The translations under genes and the position numbers were made by a program. This document shows, piece by piece, positions 1,848-32,088 of a DNA stretch of 43,847 nucleotides. Numbering within the stretch: position 1 is the stretch's first letter; every line of letters begins with the position of its first letter. This DNA is from Hyphochytrium catenoides. Lineage: Eukaryota; Protista; Hyphochytriomycota. The DNA lies in contig FLMG01002021.1 of the NCBI GenBank assembly GCA_900088475.1, forward strand, positions 1-43,847, written 5' to 3'. The notes beneath the pieces are model-generated. The model was not told the origin of the DNA. It saw only the letters and a list, made by a program, of their open reading frames with translations, and searched no databases.

Positions 1848-3497
1848 ATGATGAGCGGCACACAAGAGGGGTCCTTACATCAGCAAGAAGGCGCTGTGCA
1901 TGCACTTGACCTGGTCAGGGCAGAGCAAGGGAAGGATGTAGCACAAGTGGGCCATCGGTTCGGCAATTTCCACACCTACTACAAGTTCAATCCGGCACCC
2001 GAGCGTCTCCAGTTTCTTCCGAGAGCCGAGCTCTGCAATCTCTTGTTAGGTGGCTCTCTGGAAGGGAAGGATCTTCCACTGAAGAGAGATCAAAGCAAAT
2101 TCGAGAGGACGCTTCTACTATGCGATGTTGGATGCAATGAAGGTAGGACTGATGCTTAATAACTGTCCGCTGTTTGTCCATAAGGAAGTGGCTCTGGAGC
2201 TGATTCCTCAGATGTGTTATGATAGGCGATTTAACGCTGGGGTTGTACAAAGCTTTAACGTCGAAGGAGTTACCGTGGCCTGAGGTGACAAAGAAAAGGC
2301 CGGCTGCAGGAGAGGGTGGGCGGGGAGATGCTCATTCTATATCGAAGTTCAATGACCTTGTTCAGCGTAAGAAGCTCAAGGCTGAGCTCCACTTTAGGGA
2401 GGACGCGTCTGGGAGTCATAGGCAAGGCAAATATTACGTGGCATCTTTCGTGATTGGACAAGATGTGGAGGCCCAGACCTTCCGGGGCGAAGGATCTACA
2501 AAAAAGCAGGCAAAAGCAGCAGCGGCTAAGGCCGTCTTGAGGACCCTGCACCCCGAGAGCCTAATGGACAAGAGGGCAGAAGTAGAAGGAGGAGAATGCT
2601 TATCGGAAGGCCCCAGATGCTCAGATTCGCCCTCCAAGTTGGGATCGTACGATGTCCTTCTCTCTCCGGACAAAGTACAGATGCTTGGGGTCGATCTAGA
2701 CGGCGTGCTAATAGACAGAGCAATACAGAAGGCGGCAGATGAAGGCCTAAGTGGGCGAGTCACTTTTCAGATGGGTGACATCATGAAAGAGGAGAGCAGC
2801 ACTTTAAAGACGTACTTGCAGGTCATGCAAGGAGGCAAGAAGGAAAGGGATTCTCGCTTTGACCTAATCAGCTGCTTCAGTATCACGATGTGGATTCACA
2901 TCAACCATGGAGATCAGGGTTTGCAGACTTTTTTGCAGAGGATCTCTTCCCTTGCCAGGGTAATGATTGTAGAGCCTCAACCCTGGAAGTGCTACAGGTC
3001 AGGACTGGGCCTCTCTTTCCTACTAAGTTCATGTACCTCATCTGTATAGCATGCTTATTTGTCAAGCTCAAGGAAGTCGTATGCTTTCACTTGTTCATGA
3101 GCTTGCCCACGTACGACGCGAAACCTAGATCCGCGCTCGCGGGATGTGTTTATAATCCTTCAGATAGTGAGAATTCTGATCATTGATCTTTGTTCTGTCA
3201 ATTGAAGTTCTTCCCTTACTTTTTTAAGGCCCTCCCTAGGAAAAGTTCACCTCCCTAAGGTTACTGTTCTGTTTGTTTGGCCCCGGAGCTCACGTTAGCC
3301 TTTACAGGTCAGCAGTCTCACGTATGAGGAGACTGGGGTTACCTATACCTGCGGCATTCAAGGACCTTCAATGGACAAAAGATGTCGTCGAGCAGATTGA
3401 CGGCTATCTGGTTCGTTCATGTGGCATGAAGAGGGAAAAGGTTCTTGGGGAGACCATCTGGGAAAGGCCTATTTATTTATATTCTCAGTGGTCGTAA
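1848..3497 (+). CDS. Bin3/BCDIN3D-like RNA 5'-phosphate methyltransferase with inserted dsRNA-binding domain (exons 1848-2142, 2226-2997, 3308-3497)
   Basis: FGNFHTYYKFNPAPERL N-terminus; SAM motif I CDVGCNEG|DLT restored by splicing; LGVDLD; FDLISCFSITMWIHINHGDQGL and IVEPQPWKCYR are Bin3-family hallmarks; C-terminal RPIYLY. GT-AG introns keep the frame. Confidence 0.9.
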
Positions 3498-3725: not shown

Positions 3726-4262
3726 TTAGTTGTTACTGGCCCTCAGTCTTCGAGATGCATGTTGCGCGCAGTTGATCGGAGCTTCTGGTGGGCACCGTCC
3801 ATCGTCTCTGATTGGGAAGCATTCCCATTTTCCAGATCCTGTTTGGCCCCAACAAGGGGGAGACGCTGTCCCTTGGTACGTATGGCCCCAAGGTGCGGAA
3901 CAGGAGCCCTGGCAAGCTCCTCCTTTGTCCGAGTTTCCATAAAATTGCTCTTGTAGGGAATTGTGCACGACAGCCGACTGTCGAGCAGAGTTTAATGGTA
4001 GCGGAAATCCTTCAAAAACGTTGGGAAAGTCGAAATCGATGCATCCAAGAACGCCCGGTTGAACCAGTCCACAGAAGGAGTTATCAGGACAATTGCCCAA
4101 AAATCTGCCAGAGCAAGCAAAGCCCAGAACACAGCCATTAGATCTTCCTCCAAGAACCCCCACCTCCGTCTGGCCAATAGGGCAAATAGCTTGTGAAGCC
4201 TGAGGTCGTTGCAATAGGGCTAGAAAGGCCACGAACAGCGAGGATCTCATCGAGAAGAGCAT
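3726..4262 (-). CDS. Small secreted cysteine-rich protein, single exon
   Basis: ATG at 4262; hydrophobic signal peptide (SLFVAFLALL...SQA); two Cys-rich modules (CPIGQ...GVLGC and CQGSC...PINC); C-terminal RRLRA. Confidence 0.75.
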   Translation of the reverse strand: MLFSMRSSLFVAFLALLQRPQASQAICPIGQTEVGVLGGRSNGCVLGFACSGRFLGNCPDNSFCGLVQPGVLGCIDFDFPNVFEGFPLPLNSARQSAVVHNSLQEQFYGNSDKGGACQGSCSAPWGHTYQGTASPPCWGQTGSGKWECFPIRDDGRCPPEAPINCAQHASRRLRASNN

Positions 4263-5220
4263 TGTATAAGCAGTTTTGGGTTGCACTATTTCAGATTCGA
4301 TGGGTTGGTGCCTGGTGCAAGGGATGAACGGGAGGCTGGACGTGTTGATATTTGGATGAACTTTGCTGCTGAGTTGCAGATTTGAGAGTGAGCAATGTGC
4401 AGCAAGCTTCTTTGCCTCTTAATCGCGCAGACATCAAACTCTTCTGTCCTGAGGAACCAGTCTCTAGGAATAAGGGGTGGGACGCGTATTGCCGAGTCTC
4501 CGCAATGGGAAAGCAGATAGGCCTTGATTGAGAAGATAACGACAAGGAGAGTGTCGCTTCGTTCTCTGCTGGTCAAGTTTACCTTGGAACCAGCGCCAAA
4601 CCCACAATCTGCCGCTGCTACTGTTCGATCGTGAAGGCGGGTGGTGGCAGGACTGATGCTATCTGTTTATACGGGGTGGATGGGTCCTGGTTGCTGATTG
4701 GCCCCTCTCGTCAAGATTCTTCAATCTTGCAAGAGACAACCCAATAAGTTACAAAGCTTCATAGGTTCCAGCTTTTAACTTTCATATTTCTTTCTGTAAA
4801 CCATAGTAAACTTTTATGTTTCAACAATATAATTCCGCGGTTGAAAGGTATCCATCATCATGGCAAATCCAAGGCCGGACAAGATATCAGCCAATCAGCG
4901 GCGATGGTCATTGGCGATACTCAAGATCTCTGTTAATGCAGCTTCAAGCGGGAGTCTGGCCCGAGTTGTTATTATGCCTATGAGATAGAGAGTCCAATGA
5001 AGCTCTTGATAGTGCACATTGTTCTAGGACCTTCCGAAGCTCAACCGGATTCTTTGTGAGAACCATGGAAGACTTTTCAGAGACAACCTATTGACAATCT
5101 TGAAGACGGTCACCTGCAAGTAGTTGTGGCTTGCGTGGCATCGATTCCTTTTACGGAGTATAAAAGTAGAGGTTTCTTGAAGGCATGCGTGTGTATACCA
5201 CAATTTGAAGACTAAGACTG

Positions 5221-6937
5221 CTAGTGAGGCCTGGCCTTCATAGATTCATCATATGTCTGACTGTACTTGGAGAGTAGATATTCGCCACTCGTAACTGGGC
5301 CATACTTCGCCGGCGTCTCTGTGGTACAAAATTCCGCTAAGGGTGATACCTGGCATTCAAAGTTTGGGTCAAAAAACAGTGCAGCGGAATATCGCTCACA
5401 GCCTCGGTAATTCACCACACGGTGAACAGTGCTTCGATAGACGTCATTGGTCCATCGCTCTAGTATTAGCAGACGAGATAAGTGTGAGGTCAGCGATCTG
5501 TAGGAGGTTCGTGTTTGGTCCGGTAAAGCAAACTTTGACGTACGAAGCATATCTCCCAAGTTTATAACGAAAGCATCTGAAACAGGCGGAACTGGTATCC
5601 ACTTATCCCCTAGAAAGATCTCTAGCCCTGGATTGTCATCCGTGCTCAAGAGTGTGATCATACCTGCAGAAGGAAGAGCCGCGGGCGAGGTAGTGAGCTA
5701 CGTTTAAGTAGATAGAACAAACCAGGAATATGTGGGATGCTCGCACCGTAATCGCTGTGAGCACCACAGCCTAATATGCCATCTGATGGTAGGCTTTTGA
5801 CAGCTTGATAATGAAGCAGTCTCAATGTGGCCATAGCACTATAAACAGAGATTTCAGTCTTTCGTATGTCGGGTCGCCTTTATCTAAGACACAGCGGAAG
5901 CATCAAACGGGTTGCCTAGCAATCACAGTGCGTCCTCGTAGAACACAGGGATATCTGTGTTCCGTCCCAAAAAGGAAAACGAGCTGCAGAGGTTCCGGCC
6001 CGGCAAGGGTGACGCCACTGATACCAGTAAAGACCTTTCTGATCACTGACCGGTCGAAGTATCCAGGCCCGGCCCAACAATCCTCGGGTAGTCCAATGCC
6101 CATTGCAATGAGCCTCACAAGCCTTTGGCCTAAGGCAGTTAAAGCTGCGTGATAGTTGAGAATGACTTCCCTCCAGCCAGGCAAGATAGTCTCATCTGGC
6201 CACATGTTTGGGCCATGGAGTGGGAGCGCCAGGTCTGGATGTCCCGCAGGAATCTCTCTACCAATATAATAGCCTTCCTTCGTGTCGCCTGGTAGCAGCA
6301 TCAGCAGATCATTGTACGGCCATCATTCACGGTCACACTTGATGCCACCCTTTGTGTCGATCTCGAGTTTATTCCGCGCCTTGCTGCCCTCGATAGACTT
6401 TTTCAAACTCCCTGTCACCTCTGCTTGGCACCCTCCCTTTTCTCCTACGACCTCTCTTCTACCCAGCTTGTAAGGTGTTCTCCTCCCCTACGTCTCAATA
6501 GCTCTTCTCGCTTCCCTCACAGAAAGACGAGTGATACTCACCCATCTTCTGAGTGGCTGGATCTAAGGTTTCTGCCTGGGGCCTGGTCCATCCTCTCCCA
6601 TACTCATTTACCAGGACGGACTCTTTAAAGGCTGTGCCTTTTGTGAAAAACGTGCGCATAGCATCGTATAGCTGGGAGACCAGTTGAGAAGGCACATCAT
6701 GATTCCTTACATAGAAAAAGCCGACCTGCCGACAGGCCTGCATAGCTAGCCTCAGTAATAATGCAGGATAATTGGGAAGGGGATCCTATCCATGGAGGAT
6801 GGCAGGCAGATGGAAGAGTGAATCGACAGGCCACATACCTCGTTAATCTTTTTGGCACAGAGGGTGTCCTCTTCAGCCATGTCTATCATAGGGATCGCAG
6901 GCCCTCCCATCGAGATCGTATACACAGCGTTGGCCAT
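5221..6937 (-). CDS. 2-oxoglutarate/Fe(II)-dependent dioxygenase (IPNS/DIOX_N family), multi-exon
   Basis: IPMID, ACRQVGFFYVRNHDV, GDTKEGYY, GPNMWP, HxD (GAHSDYG, about 5750-5770), NLGDML/ERWTND, distal His (STVHRV), RYS. Confidence 0.93.
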
Positions 6938-6993
6938 CTCTCAGGCAAGGGTATGCACCGCCCGCAGCTTTTCCAGTTCCAGAAGGACAGGTG

Positions 6994-8011
6994 TTATGCT
7001 ATTATTGCCCTCTCATTCAGATGCAGATACCGCGTTCTTCCCAGTAACAGACAGAGGAAGGCAGAGGTATGAGAAAGCTTATCAGAGTGCAAGGAGCCTA
7101 CTCCGTCCGCCCCACCAAGTGCCTCTTCTGCTGTTCTTACAGAGAGGCGTCGTCTTGAAGCTGTAAGAATCGTCCAGGTCATCAAACAGATTCTCACACG
7201 CTTCCACATTCCGCATTCCTTTTGATGAGTGAACGTCATGGTGCCTGTGTTTTACAGTTCGTACAGCTCTTACGCTATACGTTAGCGACATGGTGGTCGA
7301 TCATACCTTCCCCTTTGACGAAGGGGTACAATCATCAGAACAACAGATTCCCTTTCTTCATCCTTCTGCACACCATGACATAGAGCCAAGACCCCACTGC
7401 TTGGCGATGAGGAGTGTACCTCATAGACCTTACAGCGGTTGCGCATACAGTCATTTGTCCTTCTCTATGCTGAGCCGGAATATAACGGGTTAAGAACAAG
7501 TCTTGAACAGGTTAATGGCACTGCTTCCTCGAGGTCATGCTAAAGCCACTGACTCATCGTCTTAACGTCAACCCAGGCTAACTGGGCCCAATTAGCCTTC
7601 TTCTGTGGATTAAGAGACAAGAGATAGAATCTTCTTTCTAGGGAGTTCCATATGGCATTTGGCACCCAACGTTGTGAGGAGGACTCTCGACCGAACGAAT
7701 GACCCACTAATCAGCAGTTCTACCGTTTAGATGCAAACTGACGGAAGCTAGCGCCTAATTATTGATGATGGAATGAGCGTCGCTATTAGGATGGTTGCAG
7801 AGAATGCTAGTTTCTAAGAGCTTGTCATAGATTTGCTGCGATACGATGCCCTGAGCCAGAGAGTCAACTGCTCCGTTCTATAATGATGCGGTTCATCTTC
7901 TAGGAATATGGGAGTGCCATCAACTAAAGGAACAAACAAACAGCCGCTGGTGAGGAAGGAACCAAAGAGCGATAGAGCGAGAACGCTTAGGCATCGACGA
8001 TGTAGCGACAT
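6994..8011 (-). pseudogene. Possible decayed 3' exons of the recombinase gene, or a second element gene
   Basis: Same-strand protein-like fragments (AVDSLAQGIVSQQIYDKLLETSILC; WVPNAIWNSLERRFYLLSLNPQKKANWAQLAW) near splice-like sites, interrupted by stops; no family recognised. Confidence 0.3.
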
Positions 8012-8111
8012 AATGTCAAACGTGACTATTCATTGTACTTTTGGACCCAACAGTTCAGCCAATAGGCACCCTCCGCCATGACACGAATAACATCTTCTAT
8101 CATGGGCTTAC

Positions 8112-10885
8112 ATCCAGTGAGACTCTTCCCAGGCGCATGTCATGAGCCTTGTACTTAAAGTCTCGAACCCGTTTCTCCAGCAGGAAGGTCTCCTTGATGA
8201 CGAGATCAAGGGAATATTCTGGTCTTTCGGCGTGGACAACCATCCTCTCTATTTGCTCCAGTGAAGAGGTCATGAGGGATATGTCGTTGATGAGCAACTT
8301 GGCAGCCGCTGCTTTAGGTGACTTTGCCTTGGTGTTAACGAAGGCAACAATGTCTTTCAGCACGGTCATGGGGTTGGCTCGGACACGGTCCAAAGCCCTC
8401 CGCTCGAGCCCTGGCAACTCTAAGAATGGCCCCACAAAGTCCGCCAAATGGTCACAGTTGCCTTCCGGAAGGGGTCTCCTGCCCGTCACAGTCCGTTAAG
8501 GGTGTCAATTCAAGTGGTTCCATCAGTAGCCTTCTTACTCATAAGAGACCAACAAGGGCTTGTATAACCACATCTGCGCGGTGTCGTCCTTCCTTGTCAA
8601 TTCGTATTGAAGCTGCTGGGATCCTCTACCAAAGGCCACATAGGTGAGATACTCATCACTGTTGCCAAGGTTGTTTGGTTAGCAAGCTGGTCACTCTATT
8701 GCACATGTTCATCGCTGCTTCGTCGAAGAAGTGCCTTCCGAGTCCTTACCTCTCCCAGAGCCCGCTTGCCCGGATCTCGGCATCTGTTGCCCCGCATCTG
8801 GCTGCCCATTCTGTTGCGGCTCTGCAACATATATATAGAAATAGGGTGCATGGAGAGGTCAGTTAGTGATGCGCAGTAGTGCTCAAAACACGACAAAAAA
8901 GAACCTTCTGCAGCTGCGAGCAGTGATATTATCGCCCTCCTTCTTCAACGCACGTCTGAAAGCATGATTCATTGCCTAGAGGATGTTGTTCTTCTGGCTT
9001 TAATAACAACAGTTCAATCGTAAGTGAATCTGTTGCCTCTTACATGAGAAAACTGGGTGGCGGTGACCGCCCACGGAGATAAGCTGTCGGCTAGTCGCTG
9101 ACTCCTTGGTCTCCCTTTGTCAGATAGGGGTATATCTTCCAAATTGAAAGATTGGACCAACCAGCCTTTGCCGTTGATTGAGACGGTAGCGTACTCCCAT
9201 GAGGGTAACCAGAGCAACCACAGGGCATAGCCTTGTCTCCTTTGTGGGATTCCTGTGCAAAATTTTAGAGGAAGCTTGAGGGCAAAGGTTAGCAGGTTGA
9301 CAGTGAACCGTCCTCCATCCCTAAAAAAACGATTCTTCCGCGATCCCGCACGTTCACAATGTGAGCACTTATTTGATACCTCTGTTGCTGCTGACCGCTG
9401 CCGTTGCCTTCGCCTTCTTTGCCCTGAAGTGCAAGATGAAGTATGGAGGAACGCCATCGGCGTCCAAAACGATAGGATTGCTCGGATCTCCTTGGCCTTC
9501 GTTCCCTACAGCCATACCCACCCCGTCCGTACGACGAACTCGAGGAAGCACAACTTGCTCGAAGGTCAACTGCTCTACCTCAGAAGGTTGGCTCATTGTT
9601 GCGTGACAGAGCAAGACCATAACCCATAGAGTCAGATTTGACAACTTCCCTAATGTAGGAGTACCGTCATGTAGCTATCAGGCCTTTGAGTAGGGTAAGG
9701 AACTAGGGCATTGGCTCCCAAAGGAACACCAGATTTACATGGAGCACTGACTTACATCCTTCTTTCAAGGCCTCGCTAACATCATGAGTAGACATCTTTG
9801 ATAATGTCCCTCTGACCTTCAACGAATCTTCGAGGCCATAGCCTCTAGCAGAGTCTACTTTCCTCTCCCAATCATACGATTCTGCTCGCAGACGATGCTC
9901 CAGTTCCTGCGGACAAAACACAGATGATTGACCATAATCACTGCTACTCTGGAATAACTACTAGCGCTGCCGTCTCTCTCTCTTGAGAGTACCTTCGTAG
10001 ACTTGTGATTTACTGGATTGCGCTTGCCACAAAAGTTATTGATTTCGTGGAAGTTCCTCAGCTGCGAAAGAGCAGCTAGCAAAGATGATTGCTTAAGACC
10101 TCTACCGTTTATGTTGGTTCCTGGGGCGAAAGGCACGTCTTTGGGGCCCATCATGTATCCTGGCACAGTTCATTGGTATGCGCCATAGATTAAGGGGAGT
10201 GAACAGTCAGAGAATGGTCGCAGCTCCAAGAAAAGTCATTAACTGATCCACGACGAGACCACGGCGGTGAGAGCAACCCTAGGGAAAGAGCATTACTTAC
10301 TCATAAATCGGTGGAGTTGGTACAATTTGAAGGGCTTCTGCATGTTGTTCATGTCCACCTCCTCGCCTAGAGCGGTTCTGCAGAACTGAACGAACTGTTT
10401 CACATAATCGGTCTGCGTCGCATGCTTGTGGCCTACTTTCTGGCTCTGTTTAACCCCTGATTTAAGGGACTTGATCAGTAAAGAGACCTGGTTCTTATCG
10501 CCGCCGCCAATATTTTGAAGCTTGCCACTGGTACTACTGCCTGGGATGATGTTGAGGACATTCCTACAGAGTTCGTTGCGCTTCCTCTTTCTAATCTACA
10601 TACGAGAAGGATCTATAAGAAAACAAGACTTGGAGCAGTCAATCATGTTGTTACCGATCCGCAGGATCCGGATGAGCTATTGTCATCTTCAGTCATGGTA
10701 TCGTCAGCCGCCGAGCCACTGCTGGTAGAATTGGAGGATGCTACTGCTGTTCCATCAATCCGCGTTTGTGCATCAACATCGATGGCTTTACCAGGAGCGG
10801 CAGCTCCCGCTCGCTCGTTAGTAGTAGCCCCAACGTGCGTTGTGCTGCTAGTAGCCGGGTTATTGAGTCTTGGTCCGCGTGCCAT
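8112..10885 (-). mobile_element. Intron-containing tyrosine recombinase gene (Crypton-like DNA transposon), probably inactivated. Exons 10885-10655, 10595-10301, 10159-9993, 9906-9756, 9649-9380, 9274-9044, 8975-8905, 8821-8750, 8658-8539, 8478-8112
   Basis: Manual GT-AG splicing gives a core-binding-like domain (TQTDYVKQFVQFC; LKQSSLLAALSQLRNFH...NPV), box I LLCHATMS[Q]PSEVEQLTFEQV, FRAKK, LHRNP..LCPVVAL..GPIF, and box II ITARSCRRAATEWAARCGATDAEIRASGLWESDEYLTYV with putative catalytic Tyr at 8642-8640. One frameshift is needed near 9146. Confidence 0.82.
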
Positions 10886-11386
10886 TATTATTCTTCACTT
10901 CTTCTTACGTCTCTTTGGTGCAGTGGCTTCTCACGGGTGCGATCAAGCGGAAGGATAGCCCTTCCTACAAAGAGCTTCCACCTTCTTGCTCCCCCTGTCG
11001 GTGCAACAGTACTGTTTCGACAGAAGAAGGAGGAACTGAAAGGCTGAGGAAGAAAGGAAGAAGATGGTGGTGGGTAGGGTCGATTGTGAAGTGAAGATGG
11101 AACATCAAGATGACTGAATGAAACAATCAAGATCAGTGAGCTAGCTGCTGATGCGGGGAAAGTGTAAAGTGAACACGCCAACACGCCATGAGGGCTAGTT
11201 CTATCTCCTGGCTCAGTAGATCGGGCAGGATTATGCTACCTTTACTATTGAAACTAGTCTTTATACGGTAGTTGAAGGGCAGCTTGTAATGCGTAGTAGT
11301 CGCAGTACTGCCTGCTAACTACTACTGTTGTGTTAGGACTGTGAGTTGTATCCGGTATATAGTCCCTGGTCACTCCAGTCTAGATT

Positions 11387-11467
11387 GGATATTTGGTGCA
11401 ATGTCTTTGCGGTAGCAACGCTTGGTTGATCATTCATGAGATTCAGGTTCAAGTCCTGGAATAACCT
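11387..11467 (+). pseudogene. Degenerate tRNA-like sequence (tRNA pseudogene or tRNA-derived SINE head; most like tRNA-Gln)
   Basis: Acceptor stem GGATATT/AATAACC (6 of 7 pairs); A-box-like TGGTGCAATG..GGTAGC; T-arm TCAGG-TTCAAGT-CCTGG with B-box GGTTCAAGTCC; followed by TTTCCTTTT. D-loop is extended and the anticodon stem is imperfect. Confidence 0.5.
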
Positions 11468-14400
11468 TTCCTTTTCCACTGTACTCTAATAGCGATTTCC
11501 TTTCATGTTGGACACATGCAGAAAGACGCACCTACTACCTTCCTACGAGTACCTCTGAGATGCCTCCAAGCATCGCGCCGAGCTGACCGGCATCCTCCAT
11601 TATTGCCATCATCATGACATTAGGTCTCTGAAGGTGAATGGAGACAAGACAGTGGAGAAATGCCAAAAAGGAAAGGCAAAGACTTCACTACTGTTCTACC
11701 CTCAAGAGCACCCACAAGACATCGAAACGGAGGATGAACCCACTTCTTGGTGTTGCATCTGTAGGATATTATGCTTTATTACTACTAACAGCGTCAGTGT
11801 CTTCTTTTCTGGCAATATTCCTGGCACGACTATTGTTAGGTCGCCCAACAACCTCCTTTCCCGTTCAAGGTGTTAATTAACACTTAACACTTCATCATGG
11901 ACCCAGTGCTGCAGCAGGTGCTTCATTTTCAGACGTAGTAGGGAGAAAGGAGGCTTTTCCTGGCCGAGCGGTTGTCATCTTCGCAGGACTTGCCGAAATG
12001 ATGCGCACACGACTGGTGGCGACAAGTTGGGGTGCATACACGTCTATGATGTCATAAATCAATGTCCTTAGACACAAGATCTGGGGGTGGAGGGAATGAG
12101 ACCCTTCTGTTATTGCTATTATCAACAATGGACAAAAAAAATTGTGCAGAGGACCGGAGGAGGGTGGAGGACGACCGGAGGATATTTATTGAGTACAGAA
12201 GACCGGCAGACTATGATGAGGAGGGTGTGAGGTGGGAGGAATGTCTTGAGGTGTTAACGATCATCCCTTTGATGACATAAGAAGGGAACTCAACTACAAA
12301 GCAGAGAGCTTCATCTTCTAGGAGCAAAATAATCACTTCTGTCTCCTCCGCGCCCAACCGACAGAAGAACTATCTAGCTCTCTGGCAAAGCGGTAGTGGC
12401 TAGTAGGAAGGAAGTCGTACGAGAGAAGTCCACCGGAAAGCAGAGGAAGGGACATTACACGCTGATGCTGCTGGGTCCAGTACTGAGGCGCCCATTACCA
12501 CTAGAAGCTCCAACATCATCAGCATACTCAAGGGTTTCGATGGGGCTCATTTCAAGAACGCGTTCCAAAATTTTCCTTGGGTCGTCTTCCCAGAGTCCGT
12601 AACAACCTTCTATCATCAACCAACGAGTAGCGGGAATATCGCTTCTATACTGCAGACCAACATACCACAGCATCGCCTCCTGACAGCTCCAGATTACTGA
12701 ATAGAGGGCATCGCCCTACCGCCTTGCGACAGACATTATACACAGCTAGGTGCTAGGAGGTCAAAGGGAGAAGACCTACACACGTCACCATGAATTCTTC
12801 CTCTTTCTAAGTGCAGGGAGCTGTATTAGGAGAATAGCGTCAATATCTATGGTACTGCAGTTTACAATCTAGTGTATATGATGTGAAACAGCAAAGTTCT
12901 CGTCTAGTACCTTCAGGAAACCCTTATGATGTGCACAAGCGTGACTGTCTTGATGGTCTCGGCGGTACGCCCTCTTCCTCTCCTCCTCCATCTCCTTTCG
13001 TTATTGCCGAAGAGCTCAACTAATAAATTATGATTCTTCTTCATTTCTCGTTAATGACTGTGGAGGACGAGAACGTGTTGAAGAAACCAGGACTCTGTAG
13101 CTCTCGCCTCGTCTCTATTGTCTCCTTCTTCTTCTCCTTTTTCTTGTCCTCTTCCTTCTTCCTGTCCTCTTCCTTCTTCTTCTTTTACTGCTTGTTTATG
13201 ATTATAGTAGTAGTTCTTGAAAGACCAACACTAAATTAAACTAAAGATTTTCAAATCACCTGTGAGAAATGTAAAAACAGATTGCAGAGATCGCAGAAAC
13301 TATTCGATAAGAGCTACTACAAAACCGTGGACGTAGTCGCCCGCTAGCGACGAAAACCCAGAAGGAAGCTATTTTTATAAAAGTGCTTCATGGGACACAA
13401 CTCTGTCGCGCAGTGTCTCCCCAGTCTATGAACCTTCATTAGATCTTTTACGGGAAGAACGATGCAAGATGCGAATAATGTAAATGGGAGAGACTATTGC
13501 AAAAGTAGTTCTACGCATAGAGAAAGGAAGAGTAGAATTCATTAGCAGGCTAGCTGACACCACCATCAGACCATCAGTACCGCCATTCGAAAGAAGAGGT
13601 GAGTTTTGAGGACAAGACAGAGACGTACTGTAGAGGACTTCAGACTAAGAAGAAGGGCGCAGCGCAAGAACCGGCAGCGGCAATGAGCCGCTCAGCGTGA
13701 CCTCACGACTTTCATGCCAGCGGAGCTAGTGGATAGTCCTAGTGGCAAGGGGAAATCGGGAGTGCGGTGGCGTGAGCCGCGCTTATTTGCTTCCTTCAAT
13801 GTTCGTCGCCGTTAGTAATATTTCGTAAATGGGCTTTCTCTTCGTGTCTAATAGAACTGCGGAGTAAGAAAAGCAATCAAGCATGGCGGACAGCACTAGA
13901 AGTACTATTATTACTTCAGGGGAAATTGCCTGCGGAGTAGCGGTAATGGCGATGGGCTTGTGACCTGTGACTGCTGCCGTGCCACCACTACCGCTGTCAC
14001 ATGGTGCGTACTCCTCGGTCTATGACGCGCCCTTGCATGGTAACTATCATTGTTGTCTATGACGCTCCCCGTAGTTCTACATGCAGTAAAAGGCGGGTCA
14101 GAGATTGAAGACGACGATAACCCCTTATCACAAGTACTAAATAACGGTAATAAAACAGTACAAGGATTGGGGCAACAGCGCTACAGTTAGAGTAGCTGTC
14201 GTACCTGTACTGTGCTGTTGTGCTCACTGGAGGTTGATAGGTCTATGAAAGCAAATGGTGTACTACCAGTACGCCCTGCCGTTAACCGCTACTAGCGAGA
14301 CACACGCTCCTAGAACTGAGGGCCAAACGCTGGCCTAAGGTTATTCCACGCGCCGTTCCATAAGCCTTACTACACCGATAACTGCATATTACCTGTAAGG

Positions 14401-29474: not shown

Positions 29475-32088
29475 TTAGTTCAGCACTACGTAGCCCCTCC
29501 TAGCCTTTCTAGTGTTAAGATAATACTGCACCGCCACCAAGACAACTGCCGCTGCCAAGACACCAAGAGTAAAACTGCCAAAGTGCACTCCTCCCTTAGT
29601 GATCGAAGCCGTCGGATCTGGTCTGCTAACCACCGGAATATCGGAGGACGGTTGCCCGTTCTTTTGCCTTTCCTCCCACTTCTGACCAGGCGGAAGGTGG
29701 ATGCCCCACTCTGGCTCATGTCCGGGGTAATAGTACGTGCTACCCGGCCAACCCGCGTACTCTGTAGCATTGAGCCACCATGCGGGATAGCCCAACGGTC
29801 TGGAGAGAAGGAAACAATACAATTGAGCGAGTTTAGGCAGCGCACTCATAAGTGGTGGTTAACCACTTCCGTTGAGAATCTTGCTAATCCCTCAAACCGA
29901 CACTCTCTTGCTCTAGCTATCTCCAGGTATCCCTACGTTCTGGCTGTATGTCTCATTCGTGACACTCTACTCCAGCATTGGCCCGCCTGTCCTTTTCGCC
30001 CCCCTAAAGAACTATTGGCATACCTTTGTTCCCCTGCTTTCTCCCCAGTGGTCAAGTAGCCATTCGTGAATTTTGCAATGAGCTTCCAGGCCAGACTCCA
30101 CCAGGACTTGGTCACATATTCGGCGTTATCGAGAGAGAAACTCTGCACAAGTTCAATCGCTCTCGCAGGATTAGCGCACTTTCTGCCCTTAGCCCCACAA
30201 GCAGCAAGTGCTTCCTCTTCAACACGTTTCTGCTCATCAAATGCACGTTTCTCTAGTCTTTGCTGCTCTGCCAGGATATCCGGGGTCATCGCATTGAAGC
30301 GAATGAGCCTCCAGTTGTTCACCAAATTGAAAGCCCACCAGGCCGACTTCAAGCTAAACTCGGACATCCTTCCTTCCAGCCAAGAGGCAGGGACCTCATC
30401 CTGTGACCCGTAAATTGGCTGGTAGACAGTGCCATTAGGAGTGTCATGTCCGTACCATGCAATTCCCCCAATCTATAGTAGATTAGCATTTTGTCAGTGA
30501 TCCAGGCGTGAATAATAAGCATCGTCACCTATAGACAACATACCTCATCAGGCATATCTGGCCTAGCTTGCGCAACGAAGCTAAACGTGGACCTGAAAAT
30601 CGAGATGACTCTCTCCCACCCTCCTTTGATGCCGTGGCCGTAGCCATCCCATCTGATTGGATTCTCGTATGGGCCAGCGCCAAGACCTAGAGATATAAGT
30701 GATGAGCCTTTAGACCTCTACTCGTAGTTATTCTCCCTTCCATCGCGTCGTCATGTCTCCTGTCCATGAGGACATCCTCCTCAGTTCTCTTCCATTCACA
30801 GTCATAGATGCCTCTTGCTTTCTTCTTACACATAACGTTTATCCCATACGTAGATACAACCCCCACTAATCCTTACCTTTGGTTTGGTCAAACTCTGTGC
30901 CTTCGAAGCGATCGCGGAGCAAAGACATGATATCTTGCACACTGATGAGACTATCAGGCTTGACACTGAACGGATAGCTCGGACGCTCAGGTGTCATGCC
31001 CCAGTACGGATCCAACCGTAAAGAAGGTGCAAAAGTGTCAAAAATACGCCAGTGGCGGCGGCCAGTGTAGAGGGATGGAAGCGCCTCATCCGCAGTCCCA
31101 TAGCCATAAGCTTTGAAAAAGTCGAACGGCTCCTTATCAGGGTTCCACCACCCCTCTTCGATGGCTAGGCTGTGCACATTAGGAGAAGCCATGAAATTCT
31201 TCTTGTCAGACAGGTCCATCTGTCGAATAATAAAGCTGTTGGCAGAGGCGGAGACGTGGTTGTCAGGGACTCTCTGTGCTGCCCACACAGCGCTGCTGCC
31301 GTCCTTTCCCGTCATGACATGGAATACCCAAACCTCTCCGTATTTATCCCCAATGCCCAATGTCTCTGAAGAGTCAGCATAGCCAGGATTCTTGGGATCG
31401 CCAGAGTCTGCACTCCAGAAGCCATATTTGTAGGCCAGTTCTCCCATCAACTTGACTGCACAGCGCGCACTATCGCATCTCTCCAGCGCAACTTTAGAAA
31501 GCTCATCGATGCCAAACATTGCTTTTCCCCAAGGGTCATTTAGCGGCCAACCAGCCGTTTTGGCACTCGTTGTGGTCTCCGCGATGATAAGCTGCTTATC
31601 ATTGATGAGTCCATAGTCTTGGTCCATGTAGCCATAGGTATGAGGCACCTTATACAGGGAGGTTGAGTTCACAAACAGAGGCGCAAGACGCTTTCTCAAG
31701 TTACTCACCTGGGGAATGTAGCCAAGAATGACACTCTCGTTCTCGCCCTTCTGAGGGTAGTAAGACTCACCTCGCGACTTGGAGAGCAGTCGCGGAGCTC
31801 CGTCCTGGAATCTGTAAACTGGCCTCATAGATCCCTTTGGCCAGTCAGCTGCAGGGACGCGAACCTGCAGACCAAACCCCGCCCAATGAGCACATAGCGC
31901 AGCTGTCGTAAAAGCGAAGTCCTTACCAGCCTCAAGTCAGATGCACCACCACCCGCATCGTCGGTGTGGGCGAGCATCACAGAGCCATCCGTGGTGGCCT
32001 TTCGGCCCACCATAATGAGAGTGCATGCCTCCGACCCAGTGTAAAGAAGGGTAAGGGCAAGCCCTGTCAGCAACGACATAAGCTTCAT
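29475..32088 (-). CDS. Peptidase family C69 (dipeptidase/secernin-like Ntn hydrolase) with signal peptide and C-terminal TM
   Basis: MKLMSLL...SEA then CTLIMVGRKATTDGSVMLAHTDD (N-terminal Cys nucleophile); IAETT, LERCDSARCAV, WAAQRVPD, LRDRFEGT, WERVISIFRST, WYG; C-terminal TM FTLGVLAAAVVLVAV and GYVVL. Confidence 0.92.

Follow-up and report, generated by a model that had tools for sequence, protein, structure and literature searches.

Cryptons are eukaryotic DNA transposons that encode a tyrosine recombinase (YR). In the Crypton model, as given in the sections of PMC3212892 used here, an element is excised as a circle and reinserted at a short matching target. The insertions and excisions described in PMC9977147 (cited in part) are consistent with the target-site portion of this model. 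Glomhoppers, the intron-rich CryptonA elements of Glomeromycota that carry a DUF3504-type YR, display 1 to 20 predicted introns in their YR genes (PMC13465315, cited in part). Among the captains of the giant Starship elements, HhpA has a Tyr residue at the His position of the HxxR motif (PMC10104507, cited in part). Cre recombinase of phage P1 still recombines without His289, and does not recombine without Arg173 (excerpts of PMC4381057).

The window analyzed here (the whole stretch of DNA, 43,847 nt, contig FLMG01002021.1 of Hyphochytrium catenoides) has a YR gene on the minus strand at positions 10885–8100, with nine GT-AG introns. The parts of the gene are as follows.

10655..10885, minus strand: exon 1, with a putative start codon and a Ser/Thr-rich, low-complexity N-terminus (codons 1–77); without homologue coverage
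10301..10595, minus strand: exon 2, with a basic KRKR motif and the first core-binding helices; it is aligned with homologue P0002, which has an insert precisely at intron 2
9993..10159, minus strand: exon 3, core-binding domain (SSLLAALSQLRNFH...NP); positions 9990–10094 are also matched by a paralogous contig
9756..9906, minus strand: exon 4, linker that leads to the catalytic domain, with many nonsynonymous allele differences
9380..9649, minus strand: exon 5, box I and the catalytic-Lys hairpin
9588..9590, minus strand: codon 302 in exon 5, position of the box-I catalytic Arg; the window allele has Gln and the other haplotype Arg
9044..9274, minus strand: exon 6, HRNP..LCPV and GPIF motifs; contains the frameshift; homologue P0005 aligns across the shift with 50% identity
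9120..9140, minus strand: frameshift and stop of the window allele, an extra base at 9139/9140 and a premature TGA at 9122–9120
8905..8975, minus strand: exon 7, first part of box II (R468-S-C-R471); both alleles have Arg in place of His
8750..8821, minus strand: exon 8, box II helices and W494 (position of Cre W315)
8539..8658, minus strand: exon 9, predicted nucleophile Y502 at 8642–8640, eight residues past W494
8100..8478, minus strand: exon 10, conserved C-terminal extension, predicted to be all-helical, 41% identity to homologue P0004

The introns have lengths of 59, 141, 86, 106, 105, 68, 83, 91 and 60 nt. Five of the nine begin with GTAAG, a sequence that is found six times on the minus strand of the gene, with 2.1 occurrences expected (23 of 1000 Markov simulations reach six). 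Homologue fragments break or carry insertions at the same points as introns 2, 3, 5, 6 and 9, i.e. at five of the nine junctions. The haplotype indels listed within the gene (at least four) are all intronic except for one, and the intron 1 variants of the other haplotype (at least three, among those listed) all lie outside of exon 1. As judged from sequence comparison, the spliced, multi-exon YR gene is real. The initial annotation had joined unrelated-looking reading frames by nine GT-AG introns; these were found again, as were all the motifs it quoted, in the order claimed. It also counted at least ten exons. Ten were rebuilt, and more than ten are not required: the 3′ end of exon 10 has two options, a TGA-TAG double stop at 8102–8097, giving 661 codons, into which the exon may run, or a GTAAG donor at 8111.

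The product is a predicted tyrosine recombinase of the Cre-like type, very divergent in its sequence. A Cre-like profile, made of 11 sequences (P1 Cre and ten plasmid Cre-like integrases), gave 9.8 bits with the spliced model by hmmsearch; none of 1000 local shuffles scored as high, the maximum being 6.1. The hhalign program shows residues 192–501 to be colinear with the profile (probability 84%, E = 7e-6). Cre residues R173, K201, H289, R292 and W315 align with Q/R302, K360, R468, R471 and W494, respectively. K360 (9416–9414, exon 5) is invariant in all four rows of the homologue alignment. Tyr502 is proposed as the nucleophile from its spacing, the profile alignments ending at residue 501. 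Exon 5 in the ESM Atlas displays similarity to DUF3435, DUF3504, Phage_integrase and ResT-TelK clusters at 0.92–0.96; the ten best family matches all belong to one clan, that of the YRs, and the best is a DUF3435 cluster (0.96).

Pfam, PHROGs, NCBIfam and PDB sequence searches with the exon frames, the frame read through the stop, and the homologues yielded no YR match, except for a weak one of PF00589 to homologue P0006 (E = 0.22). The YR identity proposed earlier is borne out by the Atlas matches of exon 5 and the alignment with the Cre-like profile. Of the profile comparisons suggested with it (PF00589, DUF3435 and DUF3504), the exon frames are negative in Pfam, and it is to the Cre-like profile that the spliced model matches. 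A family outside the Pfam YR models, as had been supposed, agrees with the lack of Pfam matches for the exon frames and the read-through frame. No relative of the gene was found in phage tblastn, IMG/VR and metagenome scans, nor among PHROGs with the frames of the gene.

The window copy has two lesions. One extra base at 9139/9140 shifts the reading frame within exon 6, and the spliced frame stops at codon 423; contrary to what had been expected, joining the exons does not give an open frame. This base is seen in contigs of the DNA runs X1 and X3 and is missing from the X2 contig (the three runs represent two samples of one study, and the window itself may derive from one of them). Its presence in both X1 and X3 indicates that the frameshift is not an assembly error. 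The model without base 9139, i.e. the X2 form, has no stop.

An extra intron that would restore the frame was considered and rejected. Many GT/GC-AG pairs reopen the frame, with poor donors or with loss of the CPV/GPIF motifs; in addition, P0005 reads straight through the site, and the other haplotype is without the extra base.

The second lesion is in box I, which reads MSQPSE in the window with Gln at the position of Cre Arg173. In the other haplotype a T>C difference at 9589 gives codon 302 as CGA (Arg) in place of CAA (Gln), and Arg is also present at this codon in homologues P0003 and P0006. The Arg-to-Gln change arose by CGA to CAA and is counted as decay together with the frameshift. 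Box II reads RSCRR, with Arg at the position of Cre His289 in both alleles. The catalytic set of the window allele, which is frameshifted, is therefore Q-K-R-R-W-Y, and the other haplotype has R at the first position and an open frame, the two sites being unphased. Because Cre requires Arg173 and not His289, the window allele is predicted to be dead twice over, and an allele with Arg302 and an unbroken frame could be active. The two changes do not support the intact integrase that was first read in the window; of the full set of YR elements claimed, the motifs are present, with Gln for Arg in box I and Arg for His in box II.

Both forms have about equal depth where both are listed in the DNA runs, as in a heterozygous diploid. 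The strain likely has one intact allele, although the contigs do not phase the lesion sites 9139 and 9589, which are 450 nt apart. The listed allele differences over positions 8440–9960 number 37: 19 are intronic (567 nt), 15 nonsynonymous (733 sites) and 3 synonymous (218 sites). All contrasts among the three classes are non-significant (P 0.09–0.78; small sample). The ratio of pN to the pooled neutral value is 0.73 (P 0.41, low power), which is also compatible with one constrained and one dead allele. Thus there is no sign of purifying selection in the allele differences of this segment, which have little power.

Heterozygosity is high over a broader region: positions 6500–12500 display about 200 substitution places and many indels in 6 kb in X2, a count that includes repeat and paralogue contigs.

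A HMMER search using the read-through frame against 1.84 billion representatives yielded five matches at E up to 0.001, all of them unnamed, exon-sized Logan fragments. Four of the five, each with a longest contig of 6343 nt, are probably from one gene. One further fragment comes from JGI. Identities to the YR gene are 41–66%, and the catalytic Arg and Lys are kept. The ends of the fragments follow the exons: P0002, with its insert at intron 2, extends as far as intron 3; the similarity of P0003 is lost at intron 5; P0005 covers the segment between introns 5 and 6, its GPLFQFDEIP continuing through the site of the frameshift in the window; and the P0004 match begins at intron 9. Box II is outside of the coverage of any homologue, and Arg at the His position is thus seen in two alleles only. 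Word-based searches with exon 5 (among longer proteins) and with the read-through frame gave no match.

In the same genome a contig present in X1–X3 matches positions 9990–10094 only (105 nt) and diverges in the same place, at the intron 3 donor. It is a putative partial paralogue. Further paralogous contigs at 80% identity were not found among the matches listed in the DNA runs. The median depth of gene and flanks is 375 and 436 in X1 and 37 and 37 in X2, contig depth being a weak measure. Depth is equal to that of the flanks, and therefore a burst of copies at 80% identity or higher is not indicated. The YR gene is low-copy and on both haplotypes, with one partial paralogue. The five homologues, the one further fragment and the paralogue suggest a family rather than a single gene. 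No paper on this YR family was found by title and abstract; supplements or Repbase may hold it.

Two regions outside of the recombinase domains are conserved as well. The KRKR motif of exon 2 is present in P0002, which agrees with the NLS-like N-terminal motif noted previously. The C-terminal extension of about 125 aa, conserved in P0004, has a helical model (pLDDT 60) for which the fold search gave generic helical bundles only. It shows no match in Pfam (exon 10 and P0004), in the Atlas (no usable match for P0004) or in the PDB fold search, and here too the earlier description, a long extension without a known relative, stands.

The GC content of the window is about 49% and flat throughout. 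Pfam searches with 34 frames (31 of the 80 frames of at least 100 aa, plus shorter frames) identify Bin3/dsRBD, 2OG-Fe(II) oxygenase, RING, La, peptidase C69, PP2C, HECT and ankyrin genes. No RT (reverse transcriptase), RNase H, gag, capsid, transposase or cargo family was found in these frames, in accordance with the earlier statement that RT and gag are absent nearby, and 19 frames inside or adjoining the YR gene have no Pfam family. Within the scanned frames the YR is the only mobility enzyme, with neither RT nor DDE transposase, as is expected of Cryptons in the broad sense. Such Cryptons are also expected to have terminal direct repeats of 4–6 bp that match the target site. The flanks contain no more direct and inverted repeats than chance would give, and no termini stand out above that level; TATGG is absent from both strands at 10800–12000; and no joint that skips the YR gene, as an empty site would give, is present among the joints listed in the DNA runs. 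The YR stop codon is 88 bp from the next putative ATG, at 8011. One repeat is located in the upstream flank.

11330..11505, plus strand: high-copy short repeat of about 175 nt with tRNA-like A and B boxes, in the flank of the gene

Its bin depth is 10–12 times that of the flanks, several contigs have sharp loose ends at it, and it lies 445 bp upstream of the YR start. ARAGORN and Rfam were negative. The repeat is likely a tRNA-derived SINE, a candidate flank feature that is not assigned to the YR element.

Several other loci of the window may be mentioned. The minus-strand gene at 8011–6850, putatively for a secreted protein, is intron-split, has a signal-peptide-like start and no Pfam family; two 3-nt haplotype indels preserve its first frame. 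At position 7367, within this gene, loose ends of other contigs join in X1–X3, which suggests a repeat or paralogue boundary. A probable intron-split gene at 11559–12700 (plus strand), divergent from the YR gene and without Pfam family, has a 34-nt deletion in the other haplotype at 12224–12259. Positions 2204–3049 encode an RNA methyltransferase of the Bin3 type with a fused double-stranded-RNA-binding motif. A Cys/Gly-rich frame of 230 codons at 3726–4418 (minus strand) has a signal-peptide-like segment and no Pfam family, and a peptidase C69 (dipeptidase-type) gene occupies 29933–31936 (minus strand) in two long frames.

The YR could be the surviving integrase of a larger YR-mobilized element, such as a Starship-like giant element or an endogenous DNA virus, whose other genes were lost or are not recognized. 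The DUF3435 cluster as best Atlas match of exon 5, the long protein with a C-terminal extension, as in captains, and the two adjoining frames without Pfam family (the one with ATG at 8011, minus strand, and 11559–12700, plus strand) are consistent with this. It is quite unlikely, however, as DUF3435 has no match in Pfam, no PHROG, phage or IMG/VR relative is present, the flanking genes are of housekeeping types, and the GC content does not change across the window. The giant or Starship-like element that had been proposed also does not agree with neighbors that are ordinary host genes, a locus on both haplotypes and the lack of termini.

A very improbable origin is that of an orphaned YR from a DIRS/Ngaro-type retroelement, with introns gained after insertion. 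The CPV motif and the G.W.S....Y spacing presumably resemble those of DIRS YRs; a motif resemblance to CryptonF YRs is assumed here also. One YADD word is present on the same strand near 12520, but a single YADD is about at chance level and its frame has no Pfam match. RT, RNase H and gag families are absent from the frames scanned, and the introns shared across homologues argue for inheritance at the DNA level.

The chief alternative is domestication. A Crypton-like YR may have become a host gene, either a DNA-binding regulator or a working recombinase, with the strain heterozygous for a null allele. Crypton YRs have been domesticated repeatedly (PMC3212892, cited in part), and domestication would explain fixation on both haplotypes at flank depth, the tight spacing among host genes and the conserved introns. 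The intron positions are common to a homologue of 41–66% identity, whereas Glomhopper copies lack consistent positions in the part of PMC13465315 used here; the absence of detected termini points the same way. Neutral-looking allele divergence is not easily explained by it: nonsynonymous differences exceed synonymous ones (15 versus 3; not significant). The window sequence has two lesions and a paralogue exists. Moreover, the known domesticated YRs have mostly lost the catalytic tetrad, according to the sections of PMC3212892 cited, but the homologues here keep Arg and Lys. Domestication is for these reasons considered doubtful. A narrower form appears improbable, in which the family is an intron-rich, domesticated and still catalytically competent site-specific recombinase that has RxxR in box II and a new helical domain at its C-terminus; related species would maintain it for a programmed DNA rearrangement, and a null allele would segregate in this strain.

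The preferred reading, with a probability of about 0.58, is that the locus represents an old copy, now in decay, from a divergent family of Crypton-like DNA transposons, no longer spreading in this genome. It is preferred because the YR is the only mobility enzyme, introns are kept across the family, homologues have Arg and Lys, there is a paralogue, and the copy shows decay. Against it are the absence of detected termini or an empty site, the depth equal to that of the flanks, and the distance of 88 bp to the next putative ATG, a distance that leaves little room for an element end; a host gene would likewise agree with the conserved intron positions and with the gene-dense setting. The DNA-mobile YR element first proposed is thus compatible with the YR-only anatomy, and less so with a low-number copy found on both haplotypes and without detectable termini.

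The steps of mobility are proposed by analogy with Cre and with the Crypton model. The KRKR motif would direct the intact protein to the nucleus, and the core-binding domain would bind the ends of the element. Cleavage through a 3′-phosphotyrosine would use R302, K360, R471, W494 and Y502, with Arg replacing the dispensable His. The element would be excised as a circle and reinserted at a short matching target, and the helical C-terminal extension may serve in oligomerization or end recognition. As the element would move as DNA, its introns would be retained. The insertion of this copy likely predates the divergence of the two haplotypes, and the copy now drifts.

With Cryptons in the broad sense (CryptonF, S, A and I, as treated in the cited part of PMC3212892) the locus shares a eukaryotic host, a YR without RT or long terminal repeats, tolerance of introns and low copy number. 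There are also differences. In contrast to CryptonF, there is no GCR1_C match in Pfam for exon 10 or P0004, and the helical model is without a fold match. In contrast to CryptonA, there is no DUF3504 match in Pfam, and the gene has a C-terminal domain, which CryptonA and CryptonI lack in that same account. The paired TATGG ends of CryptonS, a group that also has a C-terminal region of its own, were not found at 10800–12000. Glomhoppers are similar in their many-intron YR genes, and in that decay and domestication are hard to separate (PMC13465315, cited in part); the gene described here, however, is not of the DUF3504 type by Pfam, has conserved intron positions, and is low-copy as compared with the hundreds of Glomhopper copies reported in that part of the paper. 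Starship captains (DUF3435), in the sections of PMC10104507 used here, also have a long YR with a C-terminal extension and a residue other than His at the HxxR His position, and are the top Atlas look-alike of exon 5; there is no DUF3435 HMM match here, no cargo or giant-element boundary, and the residue is Arg and not His or Tyr. Cre and the plasmid Cre-like integrases display colinear core-binding and catalytic domains and align at the positions of R173, K201, R292 and W315, but identity to Cre is about 21%, and the gene has catalytic-domain insertions, N- and C-terminal extensions and spliceosomal introns. The RT/RNase H, gag and split or inverted repeats of DIRS, Ngaro and VIPER elements were not found.

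By Pfam, the YR gene appears to fit no named Crypton group and no Starship. It does not represent a new kind of element, since both YR-only transposons of eukaryotes that carry introns and YR genes rich in introns have been described before. What it contributes is a YR lineage that escapes Pfam, PHROGs, NCBIfam and open reading frame calling, because introns split the gene into ten pieces. Two of its traits are unusual: Arg replaces the His of the HxxR motif, and the conserved helical tail has no known match. With broken and unbroken alleles together, the locus displays a YR gene at the fork between decay and domestication.
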